The notes below the pieces were generated by a model. That model saw nothing but the letters and a program-made list of their open reading frames with translations. It had not been told where the DNA came from and made no database searches. DNA of 64,000 nucleotides from an uncultured Clostridia bacterium (lineage in GTDB: Bacteria; Bacillota; Clostridia; Christensenellales; Borkfalkiaceae): assembly GCA_947626935.1 (NCBI GenBank), contig CANQUD010000001.1:34089-98088 (forward strand), in the 5' to 3' direction. Positions 30,221-38,677 of the stretch are shown piece after piece. Within the stretch, counting starts at the first letter, position 1. The number at the start of each line of letters is the position of its first letter. Position numbers and translations under genes: made by a program.

Positions 30221-32656
30221 ATGGATATCAAGAAAATCGAAAAAAAGTGGCAGGAGAAGTGGGAAGCGGCGAAGTTCAACCGCTTCGATCCCGCAGACAA
30301 GGAGAGAGAAAAACTCTACGTCCTTGAAATGTTCTCCTATCCCTCGGGCGCAAAGCTGCACATCGGGCATTGGTACAACTACGGTCCCACCGATTCCTAT
30401 GCACGGTTCAAGCGGATGCAGGGCTATAACGTGTTCCAGCCGATGGGCTTTGACGCGTTCGGGCTTCCCGCCGAAAATTACGCCATCAAGACGGGCATCC
30501 ATCCCAAGGATTCCACCCTCAAGAACATCGAGACGATGGAAGGTCAGCTCAAGGCGATGGGCGCCATGTTCGACTGGTCCGCAGAGATCAAGACGTGCAC
30601 CGAAGAGTACTACAAATGGACGCAATGGATGTTCCTGCAGCTCTACAAAAAGGGGCTTGCGTACAGAAAGGAAGCGCCCGTCAACTGGTGTCCTTCCTGC
30701 AACACCGTTCTCGCGAACGAACAGGTCGTGGAAGGCAGGTGCGAGCGCTGTGACTCCCCTGTCGTGCGGAAAAACCTCACGCAGTGGTTCTTCAAGATCA
30801 CGGCGTATGCCGAAGAGCTTCTCTCCGGTCTCGACACGGTCGACTGGCCCGAAAAGACAAAGAATATGCAGCGCAACTGGATCGGCAGGTCCACGGGGTG
30901 CGAGATCGAGTTCGAATGCGAAAACGGGGAAAAATTCAAGGTCTATACCACCCGTTGCGACACGGTGTACGGCGTTACCTATGTCGTGCTCGCGCCCGAA
31001 CATCCTCTCGCCCGCAAACTGACGACCCCCGAACAGCGGGATGCCGTGGAAGCCTACATCGACTATGCTTCCCGCGCCAACGAGATCGAGCGTCTCTCTT
31101 CCACGCGCGAAAAGACGGGCGTGTTTACGGGTTCCTACTGCACCAACCCCGTGACGGGGAAAAAGATCCCGATCTATCTTGCTGATTACGTCCTCTATTC
31201 GTACGGCACGGGCGCGGTGATGGCGGTCCCCGCACACGACGAGAGAGACTTCGCCTTCGCGACGAAATACGGGCTTCCCATCGTCAAAGTCATCGAAAAA
31301 CAGGGCGGAGAGACCATTTTGCCCTTCACCGAGGACGGGATCGTCGCCTGTTCTTCCCCCTTTGACGGACTTGTCGGAGAGGAAGCACGGGAGAAGATCG
31401 CCGCGTGCATCGCCTCGGTCGGCAAGGGCGGAAAGAAGGTCAACTACCGTCTCCGCGACTGGCTCGTCTCCCGCCAGCGGTACTGGGGCGCTCCCATTCC
31501 CGTCATTCACTGCAAAAAGTGCGGTGCGGTGCCCGTTCCCGAAAAGGATCTGCCCGTGAAGCTCCCCTATGACGTGGAATTCCGTCCCGACGGGAAATCT
31601 CCCCTCGCAAAGTGCGAGAAATTCATGAATACGACCTGTCCCAAGTGTGGCGGACAGGCGCTCCGCGATCCCGATACACTCGACACCTTCGTGTGCTCGA
31701 GCTGGTACTATCTCCGCTATGCCGATCCCAAGAACGACAAGGCGCCCTTCGACCGCGAAAAAGTTGACCGTCTTCTGCCCGTCGACGTCTATGTGGGCGG
31801 GGCGGAACACTCGTGCATGCACCTCCTGTACGCCCGTTTTTTCACCAAGGCGCTCCGCGACATGGGATATCTCGACTTCGACGAACCCTTCAAGCGGCTC
31901 GTCCACCAAGGCGTCATTTTGGGTCCCGACGGGAACAGGATGTCGAAATCGCACGGGAATGTCGTCTCGCCCGACGATTATGTCAACGAATACGGCGCCG
32001 ACGCGTTCAGGCTGTACCTGATGTTCGGCTTCTCCTATACCGAGGGCGGACCGTGGAACGACGACGGCATCAAGGCGATCTCCAAGTTCATGGACCGCGT
32101 GGAAAAGCTCGTCAACAGGGCTGCGGGGATCGGGAAAAAGCAGGAACTTCCCTTCGGTGCGGAGGAAAAGGCGCTCAACTACGCCCGCAACTTCAACATC
32201 AAACGGGTCTCCGAGGACATGGAAGCGTTCTCCTTCAACACCGCCATCGCACGGCTCATGGAACTGACGAACGCCCTCTATAAGTACGACGGCTTGACGG
32301 GAGAAAAGAATCTTTGGCTCTTCCGCGAGACCGTCAAGGACCTCGTTCTCCTGCTTGCCCCCTGCGCTCCCCACTTCTGCGAGGAACTCTGGGAGATGCT
32401 GGGCGGAAAGGGATTCGTCTTTGAACAGCCCTTCCCGAAGGAAGATCAGGCGGCGCTCGTGCTCGACGAGAAGGAATACGCCGTGCAGGTGAACAGCAAG
32501 ATCGTCTGCCGCGTCATGATCCCCACCGCCTACTCCGAAAAGGAGATCGAAGAATATGTGCAGACCCTTCCCGAGGTTGCCGAAAAGACTGCGGGGAAAT
32601 CGGTCAAAAAATGTATCGTCGTCCTCGGACGGCTCGTCAACCTGATCGTCGGCTGA
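30221..32656 (+). CDS. leuS: Leucyl-tRNA synthetase
   Basis: HIGH (HIGH/W) and KMSKS (RMSKSHGN) motifs, CP1 editing domain. 811 aa. Confidence 0.97.
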
Positions 32657-32670
32657 CCGAAATAAAAACG

Positions 32671-32696
32671 AAACCGCCGAATTTCAGGCGGTTTTT
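32671..32696 (+). terminator. leuS rho-independent terminator
   Basis: AAACCGCC-gaatttca-GGCGGTTT followed by TTT. Confidence 0.8.
32682..32696 (+). repeat. Left direct repeat of the islet (part of the leuS terminator)
   Basis: TTTCAGGCGGTTTTT, identical to 34955-34969. Confidence 0.8.
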
Positions 32697-32806
32697 ATAG
32701 GGATTTAGAATTAAGCGGTTTGGCGGTTAGTCAAACCGCATTTTCGTACCGCAAAAGCGGGCGAACGTTTCTTTTGAGGGGGAGCAGGATAGGGATTGCA
32801 GGGAAA

Positions 32807-32938
32807 TTATTTTTTCTTTTTCGGTGCTCCGTTGTTTTTTTCGTAGTATGCCGCAATCGCAGCCTTTTGCTTTTTCCGTGCCTCGGGCGTTTTGGCTTTT
32901 ACATAGTTGCTTTTCTTTTTTTCTTTATTAAAGAACAT
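32807..32938 (-). CDS. Possible 43-aa lysine-rich small protein
   Basis: MFFNKEKKKSNYVKAKTPEARKKQKAAIAAYYEKNNGAPKKKK. The ATG overlaps the last codons of the upstream 255-aa gene in another frame. It is below the ORF-track length cut-off. Confidence 0.3.
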   Translation of the reverse strand: MFFNKEKKKSNYVKAKTPEARKKQKAAIAAYYEKNNGAPKKKK

Positions 32939-33695
32939 CTTGTTCGCCCTCCATGCTTATGACCGCTTCAAAGTCGCATTCGTCACAGTAAGCCTGCAAC
33001 TGCTCTATCAGTCTCTTACTCGGCTTGAATTTTTGTTTGATGATATATCCGTCTTGCATATCACATAGCGGCGTTGCCATGATTTTTTTCTCGTTGATAT
33101 CATAGAATACGCAAAAATTGTCCGAATTCATCCAATATCCGTAAAAATAATCAAAAGCAAAAATCTTGTGCCGTTCATTTGTAGATCGGCTTCTGAAATA
33201 AAGGATATGGTGCGAACAGCAAGCGTTCGAAAATACATCCAGCTCGCCGTCGAAAACCAATGTCTCTCGTTTGTATAATGGCAACATGCAGTATTCGTTC
33301 AGCAGTCCGCGAATATAAACGGATAGTTCTTGCGCCGTTAACATGATTTCCGACGTCTCTATTTCATCAAAGACGGAAATGTTTTCTTTTGAAGGACGTA
33401 TCCAGATAGATTCACCCAATTCGCCTAAATTTTCATCATTGAAATACACCCTGTCAATCACGGTGTTTACGGCGTGATAGATGTTTTCACTGTCTGCTCG
33501 ATTATATTCGTCTTTTAATATATTCTCGATTTGGCTGCGTCTTTCCTTGCGCACTTCCACAAGCGTGGGGATGAGCTTGTTCAAAAGCGCATTTTTATTT
33601 GATTTGCCGTTTTTGATGAATTTGAAGCGCAGCGCGTCGATTTCCAAAATGTTCGCCACAAAGGACGAAACCTTCACCTTGATTTTGTCGTTCAT
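32928..33695 (-). CDS. Islet protein: putative ribbon-helix-helix (RHH) N-terminus plus WYL-like C-terminal domain (tentative regulator)
   Basis: 255 aa with an AGGAGTGA SD. The N-terminus IKVKVSSFVANILEIDALRF...NALLNKLIPTLVE fits a strand-helix-helix pattern. The C-terminal ILYFRSRSTNERHKIFAFDYFYGYWMNSDNFCVFYDINEKKIMATPLCDMQD resembles a WYL domain. Confidence 0.6.
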   Translation of the reverse strand: MNDKIKVKVSSFVANILEIDALRFKFIKNGKSNKNALLNKLIPTLVEVRKERRSQIENILKDEYNRADSENIYHAVNTVIDRVYFNDENLGELGESIWIRPSKENISVFDEIETSEIMLTAQELSVYIRGLLNEYCMLPLYKRETLVFDGELDVFSNACCSHHILYFRSRSTNERHKIFAFDYFYGYWMNSDNFCVFYDINEKKIMATPLCDMQDGYIIKQKFKPSKRLIEQLQAYCDECDFEAVISMEGEQDVL

Positions 33696-33715
33696 TCGGT
33701 CACTCCTATGATTAA

Positions 33716-33744
33716 ATTATACAAACTGTCTACCAAAATGTCAA
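33716..33744 (-). promoter_or_regulatory. Consensus promoter for the 255-aa islet gene
   Basis: Minus strand reads TTGACA, 17 nt, TATAAT. A GGTAGACA half-site sits in the spacer. Confidence 0.7.
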
Positions 33745-33771
33745 GAAAATTCCGATAAACAATCAATATTG

Positions 33772-33799
33772 TCTACCGTAAAATTATGAATACGGTAGA
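33772..33799. promoter_or_regulatory. Inverted-repeat operator between the divergent islet promoters
   Basis: TCTACCGTA, 10 nt, TACGGTAGA is a perfect 9-bp inverted repeat. A third GTCTACC copy lies at 33728-33734. Confidence 0.6.
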
Positions 33800-33809
33800 T
33801 AGAATTTTG

Positions 33810-33838
33810 TTGAATTACAAGATTTTTCCTGCTATAAT
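33810..33838 (+). promoter_or_regulatory. Promoter for the toxin-like / acidic gene pair
   Basis: TTGAAT, 17 nt, TATAAT. Confidence 0.7.
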
Positions 33839-33858
33839 ATAAATGCAGGTGGAGCGAA

Positions 33859-34275
33859 ATGCGATATCACTTGACAAAATTTATGCGAGGTATTAAAATG
33901 AGCATAGTTGGTTTTTTGCTCAAGCCGAAAAAGGAAATGGCGAAAAAAGATACGCGGTATGTAAAGGTCGGTAAATACTATCTAACTTCCCATGCACAAA
34001 ATCGGATCGTTCAAAGGGAAAGGACTATGGATAAAGTCGATGTTTTGGACAATCTGTTTACAAAGCCCAATGCCATTACACAAATAAAATACAATAAGAA
34101 TGGAAAACCCTCATATGACCGTGTGGGCAAGAGAATTACGACAAGTATCAATCCAACTAACAACAATGTTGCGACTTGCCGCCCCGTAAGCAAAAAAGAG
34201 ATGAAACAATTCGGCTTGACCGATGTCGGAAAAGGAGGAAAAAGGAAATATGTTAAGCAAAAGTTTGGAAAGTAA
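33859..34275 (+). CDS. Basic islet protein, DUF4258/BrnT-like RNase-toxin candidate (tentative)
   Basis: 138 aa, very Lys/Arg-rich. The motif YYLTSHAQNRIVQRERTMDKVDVLDNL matches the H-A-x-x-R-x-x-x-R pattern I associate with DUF4258-type toxins. GGTGGAG SD. An alternative start is at 33898. Confidence 0.6.
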   Translation: MRYHLTKFMRGIKMSIVGFLLKPKKEMAKKDTRYVKVGKYYLTSHAQNRIVQRERTMDKVDVLDNLFTKPNAITQIKYNKNGKPSYDRVGKRITTSINPTNNNVATCRPVSKKEMKQFGLTDVGKGGKRKYVKQKFGK

Positions 34276-34525
34276 ATTCACGCCGAGAGCAAAAGAAGAG
34301 GCTAAAAAACTTTTAGCCGAAATGAATATAACGGAGTTGAACGACGACAATCTCTATGAGGTTGAAGTTGAGCTTGACACAAGGGTAAACGGATTGGTAA
34401 CGATGGATGAAAGTGAACACCAACCGATAGATCATGAACTCTTGGAGATCTACGATACACTGACGGATATTATTCTGGAGCACGAAGAAGAGATCGATTT
34501 CCTGAACAGGCTGTTTTTGGAATAA
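34250..34525 (+). CDS. Acidic islet protein, antitoxin/immunity candidate
   Basis: 91 aa, Glu/Asp-rich. AAGGAGG SD. The ATG lies 26 nt inside the preceding gene. Confidence 0.55.
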   Translation: MLSKSLESKFTPRAKEEAKKLLAEMNITELNDDNLYEVEVELDTRVNGLVTMDESEHQPIDHELLEIYDTLTDIILEHEEEIDFLNRLFLE

Positions 34526-34567: not shown

Positions 34568-34819
34568 ATCCTGGGAACGACAAAGGTTAAGTTTTCACAG
34601 TCGGCGGTTGATTTTATTGCGAAGTATAAGATCGAAGAGTTTGGAATAATGGGCGAAATCAACGAAGATATGTTTTATAACATTATATGCTACGCCCGAC
34701 GACTACGATTCCTTTTTGCAACCCATGAGATTGACCCACAAATCGTTTTTGACGAAGAAACATCCAAAGCGGCAGGTGAATTTACAGCGGAATACGACAG
34801 TGTGGTTTTAAGGGACTAG
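34568..34819 (+). pseudogene. Open frame without a good start (first ATG at 34649); possible gene remnant or 56-aa acidic protein
   Basis: 84 stop-free codons begin right after a TGA. KVKFSQSAVDFIAKYKIEEFGIMGEINEDMFYNIICY... reads like coding sequence upstream of the first ATG. Confidence 0.3.
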
Positions 34820-34954
34820 ATGTTTGACTTGGATGACCTTAACCGCCGTTTGGAATTGCGGAAAACGAATTAACTTCCTTGACTCGCCCAGTCGTCTGTA
34901 AGGTGTATTCCTATATTAAATTAAGATTTTGTTTGATCCCCTATGCACCCCCGC

Positions 34955-34969
34955 TTTCAGGCGGTTTTT
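34955..34969 (+). repeat. Right direct repeat of the islet
   Basis: TTTCAGGCGGTTTTT, preceded by a degenerate copy of the terminator's left arm (CCCCCGC). Confidence 0.8.
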
Positions 34970-34979
34970 TTTGTGTTTT

Positions 34980-35047: not shown

Positions 35048-35908
35048 TCAATTCCCTCTCATCGAGCGGATGATGTGTTCGGCATAGAGGCGGGCGATGT
35101 TGACGCCCGTGACCCGTTCGATCCCGCCGAAAAAGGCGTTGGAGTTGACCTCACAGACGAGAAAACCCTTCTCGCCGAACAGAAGATCGACGCCGCAGTA
35201 ATCGAGTCCCATGACAGAGGTGACTTTCTCGCAGAGAACTCTTCCCTCTTCGCCGATGTCGAAGGGTTCTCCCCTTCCGCCCTGTTCGATGTTGGAACGG
35301 AAGTCTGTGTCGGAGACCCGTTTCATGCTTGCGGCGACCTTGCCGCCGATGCAGATGACGCGCACGTCCCTTCCCGCGCTCGTCCCGATAAACTCCTGAT
35401 AGAGATGCGGACGGAGCTTGAGCGTGTCGCAGAGGGTGTCCAGCTCCTCTCTCGTCTCGGCGAGATAGACTTGCTGCCCGAGAGAGCCGTAACATTCCTT
35501 GACGACGAGCGGGTACTTCTCCCATGCGAAGCCGCCCGTTTTCGCCTCTTCCTTGTAACAGAGCGGCGCGGGGAAGGTCTTGGGCATGGGAATGCCGTGC
35601 CCCGAGAGCGTGATGTGCGTCAGCATCTTGTCGTCGCACAGTTCTACCGCTTCCGCACGGTCGAAGAGACGCATCCCCCGCTTCTCAAGCATGCGGGGGG
35701 CGTACTTGTCCTTGTCGAGATAGATGCAGAGATCGTACCGCGCGGAGAGTTCTTCGGCGATATTTCCCCCGTCGATCCATGCCGTGCGGATATTTTGGAC
35801 GATGTCGCAGGAAACGCCGAGCTTCTCCAACTCTTCCTTGAGGCGTTTGGGCTGGTAAAGTTCGGAGTCCCGATCGAGATAGGGATTGATGAGAATGACC
35901 GCTTTCAT
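35048..35908 (-). CDS. RimK-family ATP-grasp ligase
   Basis: Start at ATG 35908 (MKAVILINPY). ATP-grasp blocks PLVVKECYGSLGQQVYL, RVICIGGKV and GVDLLF...VCEVNSN. Confidence 0.65.
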   Translation of the reverse strand: MKAVILINPYLDRDSELYQPKRLKEELEKLGVSCDIVQNIRTAWIDGGNIAEELSARYDLCIYLDKDKYAPRMLEKRGMRLFDRAEAVELCDDKMLTHITLSGHGIPMPKTFPAPLCYKEEAKTGGFAWEKYPLVVKECYGSLGQQVYLAETREELDTLCDTLKLRPHLYQEFIGTSAGRDVRVICIGGKVAASMKRVSDTDFRSNIEQGGRGEPFDIGEEGRVLCEKVTSVMGLDYCGVDLLFGEKGFLVCEVNSNAFFGGIERVTGVNIARLYAEHIIRSMRGN

Positions 35909-37227: not shown

Positions 37228-38006
37228 TTTCCTTCCTCCGAACAATTCATATCGTATAAGTATTTTAATCCGTTGAGCGTGAGCATCTTATCGATGACGT
37301 CGATGCAGCCCGTTTCCCTCGCAATGACCTCGGAAAAGCCGCCCGTCGCGATCGTGAGAACTTCTTCCTTCAGCTCTCTTTTGATCTTCTTGACGATATA
37401 TTCCACAAGTCCCGCAAAGCCGAACACGATGCCCGCCTGCATGTTGGTGACGGTGTTTGTCGCGATGACGCTCTTGGGCGCCTCGATCTCCACGCGGGGA
37501 AGCTTGGCGGTGCCCGAGACGAGACTGTCGAGGGAACCCTTGATCCCCGGTGCGATGACGCCGCCGATGAATTCCCCGTCCTTTAAGACGTTGAAGGTCG
37601 TCGCCGTGCCGAAGTCGACGATGACGATGGGCTTTGCCGTTCCGTACTTCCTGAGTGCGGAGACGTTGTTGACGATGCGGTCCGCCCCGACTTCCCTTGC
37701 GTTGTCGGCACGCATTTTGAGTCCCGTTTTCAGCCCCGGGGCGATCTGCTTGGGCACGACGCCGAAGTAGACGCGGAGCATGTGCTCGATGGTATAGTCG
37801 AGGGACGGAACGACGGAAGAGATGATCCCGCCCGTGATCGCTTCCCTCTCCACGGCGTTGATGTGCAGCATCGTGATGAGCTGGACGCCGTATTCGTCGG
37901 ACGTCTTTTTGAGATCGGTCGCGACGCGGAAGGTGAAGCGGGGTTCGTCCCCGTCAAACACGGCATATTTTATGTTGGAATTGCCGACATCTATGCAGAT
38001 GATCAC
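37224..38006 (-). CDS. coaX: Type III pantothenate kinase
   Basis: MIICIDVGNSNIKYAVF, DRIVN and GTATTF motifs. Confidence 0.93.
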   Translation of the reverse strand: MIICIDVGNSNIKYAVFDGDEPRFTFRVATDLKKTSDEYGVQLITMLHINAVEREAITGGIISSVVPSLDYTIEHMLRVYFGVVPKQIAPGLKTGLKMRADNAREVGADRIVNNVSALRKYGTAKPIVIVDFGTATTFNVLKDGEFIGGVIAPGIKGSLDSLVSGTAKLPRVEIEAPKSVIATNTVTNMQAGIVFGFAGLVEYIVKKIKRELKEEVLTIATGGFSEVIARETGCIDVIDKMLTLNGLKYLYDMNCSEEGK

Positions 38007-38677
38007 GATAGTTTCTCCGTTTGGGGTGAAGTCTGTGCCGCTGTGTCGGGTCCTTCATAAACAGCATCACTTAAATGTCTGCCTTTCTTTTTGAGCACGA
38101 CTTCTGTAACACGATAAATGGAAGGTGCAGCGACTGCGGTAGAAACAAATTCTATCGAGAAATTGATAGCGGCACAAGTTACAATGATAAAATACATCAC
38201 AGATTGGCCGTTTCCTGCAGCAAGTCCGGAAAAGAAACCCCACATTGTCATGGCCCCAAGGATAAAAATCCCTGTATTCATGATTGGCGCAGAAAGAGAA
38301 GCAACGACCAACGCAACATAACGGTTCTTTTTTGCAATCAATTTGTAGAGCAATCCGGGAATGACGCCCGCCGCAATCCCCTTCAATAAACAGGTCAGAA
38401 CTGTAAGCCAAGGCTCATTGGTGAGTAGGAGTGATGTAAAGCTGTCCAAGCCCGTAACGCCAAAAATGATAACGATGATCCCAAACAAAAATCCAAGAAC
38501 ACCGCCGGCAAGCGGACCGATAATCACGGCGCCGAGCACGATCGGAATGAGCACAAAGCTCAAACTTGTCGGCAAAAACATGCTTGTCACCAAAGCAACT
38601 GATTGCAAGATGACAACGAGAGCCATCAGAACGCCCATAAGAGCGATGTTCCGCGCGGAAAATAACCGCTTTTTCAT
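38003..38677 (-). CDS. ECF transporter S component (substrate possibly pantothenate, judged from linkage to coaX)
   Basis: 224 aa with about six TM helices. Forms an ATGA overlap with coaX. Visibly lower GC than its neighbours. Confidence 0.7.
   Translation of the reverse strand: MKKRLFSARNIALMGVLMALVVILQSVALVTSMFLPTSLSFVLIPIVLGAVIIGPLAGGVLGFLFGIIVIIFGVTGLDSFTSLLLTNEPWLTVLTCLLKGIAAGVIPGLLYKLIAKKNRYVALVVASLSAPIMNTGIFILGAMTMWGFFSGLAAGNGQSVMYFIIVTCAAINFSIEFVSTAVAAPSIYRVTEVVLKKKGRHLSDAVYEGPDTAAQTSPQTEKLS

Follow-up and report, generated by a model that had tools for sequence, protein, structure and literature searches.

We analyzed a compact gene islet of ~2.3 kb in a 64,000-nt stretch of DNA from an uncultured Clostridia bacterium of the Borkfalkiaceae (GCA_947626935.1, contig CANQUD010000001.1, positions 34,089-98,088 of the forward strand; hereafter the window), and we describe it as a predicted toxin/immunity gene pair transcribed divergently from the gene of a WYL-type regulator. 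A preliminary description of this DNA had flagged three open reading frames (ORFs) in the span 32928-34525, all of which we recovered: a 255-aa protein on the minus strand, and on the plus strand a basic protein of 138 aa and an acidic protein of 91 aa, here called A, B and C, respectively. The islet itself is larger than that span, extending from ~32688 to ~34984, and beyond the three flagged ORFs includes a 43-aa gene (D43), an immunity pseudogene and end repeats. It is the most AT-rich part of the 64-kb window (GC 0.36-0.41 vs. ~0.57), and GC content at third codon positions (GC3) is 0.43-0.51 in the islet genes vs. 0.76-0.78 in neighboring host genes; related loci show that the islet stays AT-rich even though host GC varies between 0.27 and 0.70. 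Its immediate neighbors are leuS (30221..32656, +) and a gene for a RimK/ATP-grasp protein (35048..35908, -).

Comparisons were made with a sample of 45 related loci (numbered with the prefix L) from 40 species-representative genomes and metagenomic contigs, assembled using tblastn and ORF clustering. The preliminary description had named linkage of the genes in other genomes beforehand as a point on which its proposal could fail, and we find a B-family toxin gene divergent from the regulator gene in 36 of the 45 loci. The regulator has 343 homologues with 65-91% identity, all 250-256 aa long and none carrying a Pfam domain, every one of them from gut metagenomes or metagenome-assembled genomes labelled Clostridia, Christensenellaceae or Ca. 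Scatosoma. Conservation and linkage on this scale argue that the gene set is not a chance assembly. Direct scans of the five islet proteins against Pfam, PHROGs and NCBIfam returned nothing significant, so that family assignments could be examined through homologue collection, structure prediction and profile methods.

The toxin candidate B (33898..34275, +) is a basic protein of 125 aa. Its frame is open from 33859, giving the 138-aa ORF (33859..34275) that includes YYLTSHAQNRIVQRERTMDKVDVLDNL, and the ATG at 33859 was considered as the toxin start and dropped, as it is not conserved among homologues. Because a database protein with 100% identity has 125 aa and most of the 132 homologues begin with MSI(L/V)GF, translation probably starts at Met14 (ATG 33898), from which the isoelectric point (pI) is 10.3 and the net charge +21. 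Residues H32, R36, Y73 and R75 are invariant in the homologue alignment. An internal methionine within the gene (MAKK, ATG 33937) and the immunity gene share the ribosome-binding stretch GAAAAAGGAAAT.

Several lines of evidence bear on the family of B, which the preliminary description had called DUF4258-like. The AlphaFold2 (AF2) model of B (predicted local distance difference test score, pLDDT, 91) was compared using Foldseek against the PDB, where it matched CdiA-CT NC101 (probability 0.96, E 0.046, target-normalized TM-score (TMt) 0.57) and, weakly, a colicin-type RNase and RelE (E 0.4-0.8), and against BFVD, where it matched C-terminal phage domains (E 3e-7) and a DUF4258 phage protein (E 0.03). 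For three proteins of the sister subtype B3, matches to PF14076 fall short of the cut-off (E 0.009-0.07). When 1.84 billion representatives were searched with a B profile, 130 relatives were obtained, the remote ones being the last ~80 residues of long proteins that Pfam identifies as VgrG, RHS, DUF637/haemagglutinin-type, phage portal, Mu-F and minor-capsid-2. The B-matched region is DUF4258 in 7 of 10 such proteins scanned, above the gathering score in 4 of the 10. When the B family was aligned with 17 of these C-terminal domains using hhalign, the match had 99.6% probability (E 7e-24, 38% identity over 81 columns), and Pfam recognizes 14 of the 17 as DUF4258 at E <= 0.01, with a best E of 1.5e-10 and with 34.5 bits, against a cut-off of 25, for the one that was tabulated. 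By profile comparison, B is thus best read as a free-standing copy of a polymorphic-toxin domain in the DUF4258 clade, falling below the Pfam threshold, in agreement with the earlier call. DUF4258 is listed as a toxin family of the RelE/ParE superfamily (BECR) with activity unknown (PMC11980606).

The acidic protein C (34250..34525, +; 91 aa, pI 4.3, net charge -17) is the predicted cognate immunity protein or antitoxin. Its gene starts 26 nt inside the toxin gene, behind an AAGGAGG that occupies 34231-34237, and another AAGGA stands closer, 3-4 nt ahead of the ATG. A 100-aa version of C from the ORF listing was not retained, its homologues being 91-92 aa long. C is always paired with toxin subtype B1, and this B1 + C combination of the window is one of several cassettes that occupy the same position. 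Others comprise B2 (~45% identical to B1) with I2, an acidic protein of 100-113 aa; B3 with a short C of 74-76 aa, likewise acidic; and X10, a basic protein unrelated to B, with X8. Regulator homologues of lower identity stand beside still other genes, namely, in L041 (regulator homologue at 46%), an EndoU_bacteria toxin accompanied by an acidic protein and, in L043 (34%), AbiEi/AbiEii, and a more distant platform (L038) carries a toxin of unidentified family with the B-like N-terminus MSIxxFLF..KK. Toxin subtype and downstream partner co-vary without exception in all loci that have both genes, and this strict pairing, together with the orphan immunity genes described below, bears out the toxin/immunity pair proposed from the sequence of the window.

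The comparisons also reveal how cassettes have been exchanged. B1 and B2 share 35 of their 55 N-terminal residues and then diverge, and the DNA of the window and of a B2-I2 locus (L006) is 82-85% identical outside a segment bounded by breakpoints of cassette replacement at 34005 (toxin codon ~36) and 34551. Downstream of C in the window lies a full-length I2-type immunity pseudogene (34571..34870, +) whose start has been lost (CTG) and whose codon 82 is an in-frame stop; it is 75% identical to the L006 I2 over all 100 residues (tblastn), and it marks a past cassette replacement. A 56-aa ORF (34649..34819), considered as a gene in its own right, is a fragment of this pseudogene. Intact orphan immunity genes occur in three further loci (L010, L025, L031), and one locus has a single B1 toxin gene followed by three intact tandem C paralogues of 92 aa each (L045, 6122-7715), while in two others the toxin gene has decayed and the immunity gene remains (L016, L035). 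The clearest case is a pair of orthologous loci, L012 and L017, with flanks 84-89% identical on both sides, in which the toxin and immunity ORFs alone differ, within -867 to -220 relative to A; a third locus, L044, occupies the same chromosomal site. Locus by locus, the alignments show a regulator, D43 and control region that form a fixed platform, on which toxin and immunity ORFs have been swapped as a unit by recombination, leaving orphans behind. Cassette swapping with leftover immunity genes is a signature of an arms race.

The regulator A (32928..33695, -; 255 aa) is a predicted sensor and transcription factor composed of a ribbon-helix-helix (RHH), a helical linker and a WYL beta-barrel. 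In its AF2 model (40 sequences; pLDDT 86.5, predicted TM-score (pTM) 0.83), a strand (residues 5-10) followed by helices 11-23 and 34-63 forms an RHH-like N-terminus, the helical linker leads to a five-stranded barrel (residues 163-222), and one helix (227-239) and a low-confidence tail complete the chain. The best Foldseek match is WYL1 (6oaw; E 1.5e-8, query- and target-normalized TM-scores TMq 0.61 and TMt 0.42, ~260 columns, 11% identity), followed by the WYL domains of DriD, BrxR, PafBC and CapW at E 1e-4 to 2e-3, with DriD C-domain (WYL) chains superposing at a root-mean-square deviation of 2.0-2.3 A over 81-94 columns. On the strength of its modelled fold, A is an RHH-WYL protein, as the preliminary description had suggested from the sequence alone. 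When profiles of A, B, D43 and X10 were searched against PDB sequences, all matches were at chance level (SMEZ-2 superantigen, E 0.004 over ~55 residues; nsp9, E 0.05).

Directly after the regulator gene lies D43 (32807..32938, -), which encodes a very basic, lysine-rich protein of 43 aa (pI 10.3) and whose start overlaps the A stop by 11 nt. This arrangement holds in 42 of the 45 loci, including those with regulator homologues at only 34-52% identity; across loci the protein is 41-53 aa long and very basic, and its start overlaps or abuts the A stop. D43 is more strongly conserved than A, with Q24, I28, Y31 and Y32 invariant, and Pfam, PHROGs and PDB searches gave no match and detected no relatives of known function. 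A resemblance to ribosomal protein S21 was considered and set aside because profile support was absent. Our guess is that D43 serves A as a cofactor or binds nucleic acid. The three-component system of the preliminary description therefore stands as to the toxin/immunity pair and its regulator, while its count of components was too low, the 43-aa protein being conserved as well.

We next consider the 163-bp divergent region between A and B, aligned across 43 loci, where the architecture is identical whatever the cassette. The regulator operon is preceded by a promoter-like sequence, PA (33716..33744, -; TTGACA-17-TATAAT, 12/12 consensus), conserved in the 43 loci, with an operator half-site, O1, in its spacer (33727..33734; TGTCTACC, or GGTAGACA on the minus strand; near-invariant GTAGACA). 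A predicted palindromic operator (33768..33805) consists of TCTACCGTA (33772-33780), 10 nt, and TACGGTAGA (33791-33799), and it lies upstream of PB, ending 8 bp (33802-33809) short of the PB -35 box; every cassette type retains TGTCTACC-N12-14-GGTAGACA, and the two occurrences of GGTAGACA in the window are both in this control region. PB itself (33810..33838, +) is a promoter-like TTGAAT-17-TATAAT with TG before the -10 box and would serve the toxin-immunity operon. The presence of three half-sites, one within a perfect promoter, argues that A regulates its own synthesis and controls the cassette promoter.

Downstream of PB, a stem-loop of the GCAAG...CTTGAC type (33845..33875, +) is predicted at the 5' end of the cassette mRNA. 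Covariation across 37 loci supports it, with 4 of 7 pairs showing compensatory changes and 90.7% of cells paired, vs. 77% in shuffles (0 of 500 reached the observed value) and 28-49% when the pairing was slid; the window sequence alone folds weakly (-6.7 kcal/mol, z 0.2). A candidate second promoter (33871..33899, +; TTGACA-17-TAAAAT, 11/12 consensus) has a -10 box that abuts the toxin ATG, and TTGAC(A/T)-17-TATAAT is kept at this position across loci. A transcript from this candidate would lack the first toxin codons.

Sister-islet homology ends at ~32688 and ~34984, and both ends carry recognizable features. Right after the leuS stop codon (32654-32656), a terminator-like hairpin (32671..32694; stem AAACCGCC...GGCGGTTT, then a T run) probably terminates both leuS (+) and the regulator operon (-). 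It overlaps the first copy of an exact 15-nt direct repeat, TTTCAGGCGGTTTTT (32682..32696), just outside the islet end; the second copy (34955-34969) lies in another terminator-like hairpin at the far side (34951..34972, +; CCGC-TTTCA-GGCGG, then T8). Of 500 simulations of the region with a first-order Markov model, 5 (1%) produced an exact direct repeat of at least 15 nt. This 15-nt repeat in terminator hairpins could reflect target duplication or terminator-directed insertion. Inside the repeats are inner end motifs in inverted orientation, ATAGGGATTT at 32697..32706 and GATCCCCTATG (reverse complement CATAGGGGATC) at 34936..34946. The motif (consensus TTCCATAGGGAAT / ATTCCCTATG) stands at both ends of four other islets (L006, L007, L008, L021), with related forms in three more (L001, L010, L011), and several loci have inverted repeats of 34-47 nt flanking the islet (z 8-16).

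Two further stretches were noted, one within the islet and one elsewhere. Between the 43-aa gene and the islet end there are ~100 extra nucleotides (32707-32806), found only in the close relatives L006-L010 and L039, which include a hairpin, GCGGTTTGGCGGTTAGTCAAACCGC (32715-32739); a scan of the islet with Rfam gave two sub-threshold matches taken as chance, of which cyano_het_sRNA (E 0.011) falls in this stretch and is probably a chance match. Elsewhere in the window, a milder second GC dip (0.45) at 38003-38677 (-) corresponds to a 224-aa multi-pass membrane protein and looks like an ordinary membrane gene, not a second islet.

The chromosomal site of the islet differs in nearly every genome, and all 44 related loci lack leuS and the RimK-like gene in their vicinity. 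At least two species groups share a site, which points to vertical inheritance there. No recombinase is encoded by the islet, and the regulator was not found in phages or plasmids (tblastn) or in a scan of IMG/VR. An empty site, in which leuS and the RimK-like gene would adjoin without the 2.3-kb insert (CCGCCGAATTTCAGGCGGTTTTTTTTGTG), was also sought and not found: none of 54 metagenomic RimK-like relatives, all at <= 54% identity, lies beside leuS, no database record was found for the exact LeuS and P0121 sequences, and the exact RimK-like protein occurs only on contigs that already have the islet. The shared sites, the lack of a recombinase and the negative searches speak against recent movement, and mobility is unproven. 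We conclude that the islet is a discrete unit which moved, or was moved, in the past.

Taken together, we think the chances are slightly better than even that the islet is a transcriptionally gated toxin-immunity module with a role in abortive infection or defense, and with islet stabilization as a side effect. We place more trust than this in the toxin/immunity pair and in the assignment of A as regulator, and less in ligand gating and the defense role. Under this proposal, A would bind as a dimer or tetramer to the three GTAGACA half-sites in the divergent region, and from these sites would keep both promoters set, with the half-site in the spacer of its own consensus promoter providing autorepression. 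By analogy with WYL1, DriD, CapW and BrxR, the WYL barrel may sense a nucleic-acid-type signal (ssDNA, ssRNA or a nucleotide; i.e., single-stranded DNA or RNA for the first two) arising from phage attack or DNA damage, and the signal would alter the hold of A on the promoters and produce a burst of cassette transcription. B, going by homology, would most likely act as an RNase that arrests translation, and C, acidic and translationally coupled, would neutralize it by direct binding. D43, co-transcribed with A, would be an obligatory partner that either aids A or binds nucleic acid, and the turnover of cassettes may reflect an arms race.

A number of observations weigh against this proposal. 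The neighbors of the islet are housekeeping genes and not a defense island. Neither A nor B has a match of its own in Pfam at E <= 1 (no WYL match for A, no DUF4258 match for B), and C has no recognizable fold or family; C91, I2 and X8 show no DNA-binding domain and no family match in Pfam, PHROGs or NCBIfam. In L044, most of A and all of D43 have been deleted and the X10-X8 cassette has been kept; retention of the cassette without its regulator indicates that the regulator is not required to survive the toxin. The sequence is compatible with A as a repressor or as an activator of PB. Since the immunity gene is co-transcribed, it is also hard to explain how induction would free the toxin, and any appeal to a second promoter or to a labile immunity protein would be speculative. 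Finally, toxicity, RNase activity, neutralization, DNA binding and the ligand are all things that we infer.

Much of the same evidence can be read as that of a selfish addiction islet, in which the pair would only stabilize the islet or compete with rival variants, and A would be a plain autorepressor that keeps expression low; infection would not be sensed, and the host would gain nothing. We regard this as possible, though on balance unlikely. It would account for the foreign composition seen in GC3, the placement between housekeeping genes at a site that differs in almost every genome, the inverted end motifs and flanking repeats and the absence of other defense genes among the cargo, and stacked immunity genes would protect against superinfecting variants. 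A ligand-binding WYL barrel conserved at 65-91% identity is hard to square with a plain autorepressor, however, and the same platform bears AbiE, a known abortive-infection system; the islet also encodes no recombinase and was not found on phages, plasmids or viral contigs, and the insertion site shared by at least two species groups speaks for vertical inheritance.

It is very unlikely, in our judgment, that B-type proteins are instead exported or delivered as polymorphic toxins in interbacterial competition, with immunity protecting against kin. The occurrence of the B domain at the C-terminus of RHS, VgrG, CdiA-like and MuF toxins suggests such a role, as do the conserved N-terminus and variable C-termini of B1, B2 and the L038 toxin and the orphan immunity genes and arrays of the kind seen in contact-dependent growth inhibition (CDI) and Rhs loci. 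Yet B has only 125 aa, with no signal peptide by eye (no dedicated predictor was run) and no trafficking domain in the Pfam, PHROGs and NCBIfam scans, the 45 loci have no linked secretion genes, the cargo proteins X10, EndoU and AbiEii lack the N-terminus of B, and AbiE works inside the cell. That B is no toxin at all, being a non-toxic regulator, a binder of nucleic acids or the relic of a decayed phage, with the acidic protein as its chaperone or partner, we consider scarcely probable. DUF4258 has no experimentally established activity (PMC11980606) and is also found on phage portal and head proteins, and the Foldseek matches of B to solved RNases are weak (E 0.05-0.8); against this stand the strict co-variation of toxin and partner, the replacement of B by the bona fide toxins EndoU and AbiEii on the same platform, the decay of toxin genes in L016 and L035 while immunity genes stay, and the invariance of the core residues H32, R36, Y73 and R75.

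A broader version of the gated toxin-immunity proposal treats the regulator, D43 and control region as a self-contained and hitherto unrecognized toxin-cassette platform, itself a small non-autonomous mobile element with inverted end motifs, which would insert at terminators between housekeeping genes and in which an RHH-WYL sensor with a micro-protein cofactor would fire interchangeable toxins (DUF4258, EndoU, AbiE and others) on phage infection. This seems rather unlikely to us; if true, such a platform would represent a class of abortive-infection element not seen before, minimal and modular, spreading and diversifying in gut Christensenellales. The islet has several further points of significance. 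It amounts to a natural swap experiment, as one set of sensor, operator and promoter drives at least seven toxin/immunity pairs, and as a 2-kb system it could make ligand sensing by WYL proteins directly testable, the ligands and logic of which are mostly unsolved elsewhere. For DUF4258, a domain widespread in phage head, RHS, VgrG and CDI proteins, it offers a handle in the shape of a short free-standing form with a predicted cognate immunity protein. It also adds an RHH-WYL family that Pfam does not cover, along with a basic protein of 43 aa that is strongly conserved, and shows that cassettes turn over rapidly in uncultured gut Clostridia, a group whose defense systems have been little explored.

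With regard to known systems, the preliminary description had been unable to match the gene combination to a named one, and the same result was obtained here: PADLOC-DB 2.0 gave no match at E <= 1 for any of the five islet proteins, no paper combining WYL with DUF4258 was found in the literature searched, and the papers found on WYL with RHH and toxin-antitoxin (TA) systems, or with polymorphic toxins, do not describe this arrangement. WYL regulators co-localize with defense and TA loci and have been proposed as ligand sensors (PMC9122601). Among them, BrxR/CapW regulators (of BREX, CBASS and some TA systems) share with A a WYL sensor joined to a DNA-binding domain, a gene that is usually divergent from the controlled operon, palindromic operators in the regulator's own promoter region, and a family tied to many effector systems (PMC9122601). 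In contrast to them, A has an RHH and no winged helix-turn-helix, has one helix and no WCX domain after its barrel, and lacks a Pfam WYL match; the islet has an obligatory 43-aa partner gene and small, swappable toxin/immunity cargo, and its hosts are gut Clostridia/Christensenellales instead of Proteobacteria.

WYL1 (RspWYL1), an accessory protein of type VI-D Cas13d, is an RHH + WYL protein that binds single-stranded RNA (PMC6547453). It resembles A in its N-terminal RHH, its central WYL barrel and its origin in gut Clostridia, and differs in its length of ~385 aa and its large C-terminal dimerization domain, which is lacking from the 255 aa of A. A CRISPR/Cas13d accessory role for A was considered and rejected, as no CRISPR or Cas13d genes occur in the gene neighborhoods examined (Pfam-called for L001-L004 and L045, by homology and ORF clustering elsewhere; no repeat or CRISPR scan of the loci was run). 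In the Pfam-called loci, toxin/immunity cassettes and housekeeping genes make up the surroundings. Because A faces a conserved operator/promoter region, a role as transcription factor is likelier than one as an RNase booster. The logic of a WYL sensor that controls transcription of a cell-killing effector is shared with DriD-BapE of Caulobacter, in which DriD senses single-stranded DNA; unlike A, DriD has a winged helix-turn-helix-WYL-WCX architecture, and DriD-BapE is not a polymorphic cassette. BapE is a DNase and is not known to have a cognate immunity gene.

On the side of the cargo, B shares with DUF4258 (PF14076) toxins the HAxxR...R motif and a small partner gene next to it. Gene order differs, being toxin then immunity in the islet and antitoxin then toxin in DUF4258 TA pairs (PMC11980606), and the islet partner has no recognizable DNA-binding antitoxin domain, regulation falling to a separate WYL protein. 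With type II TA systems in general, the islet has in common adjacent, co-transcribed genes with a 26-nt overlap, opposite charges and co-variation, whereas its immunity proteins lack a DNA-binding domain and the conserved operators match the separate RHH-WYL protein. Orphan modules of CDI and Rhs loci offer a further parallel, with a conserved upstream part, variable toxin C-termini, an immunity gene of their own, and displaced or stacked immunity genes downstream; the islet differs from them in having no large delivery protein or secretion system, and in that its recombination handle is the regulator and promoter region, plus ~55 N-terminal codons in some types. Its compact layout has itself not been previously described in the sources searched, and we rate the islet as a variant within the known WYL-regulated toxin and defense loci.

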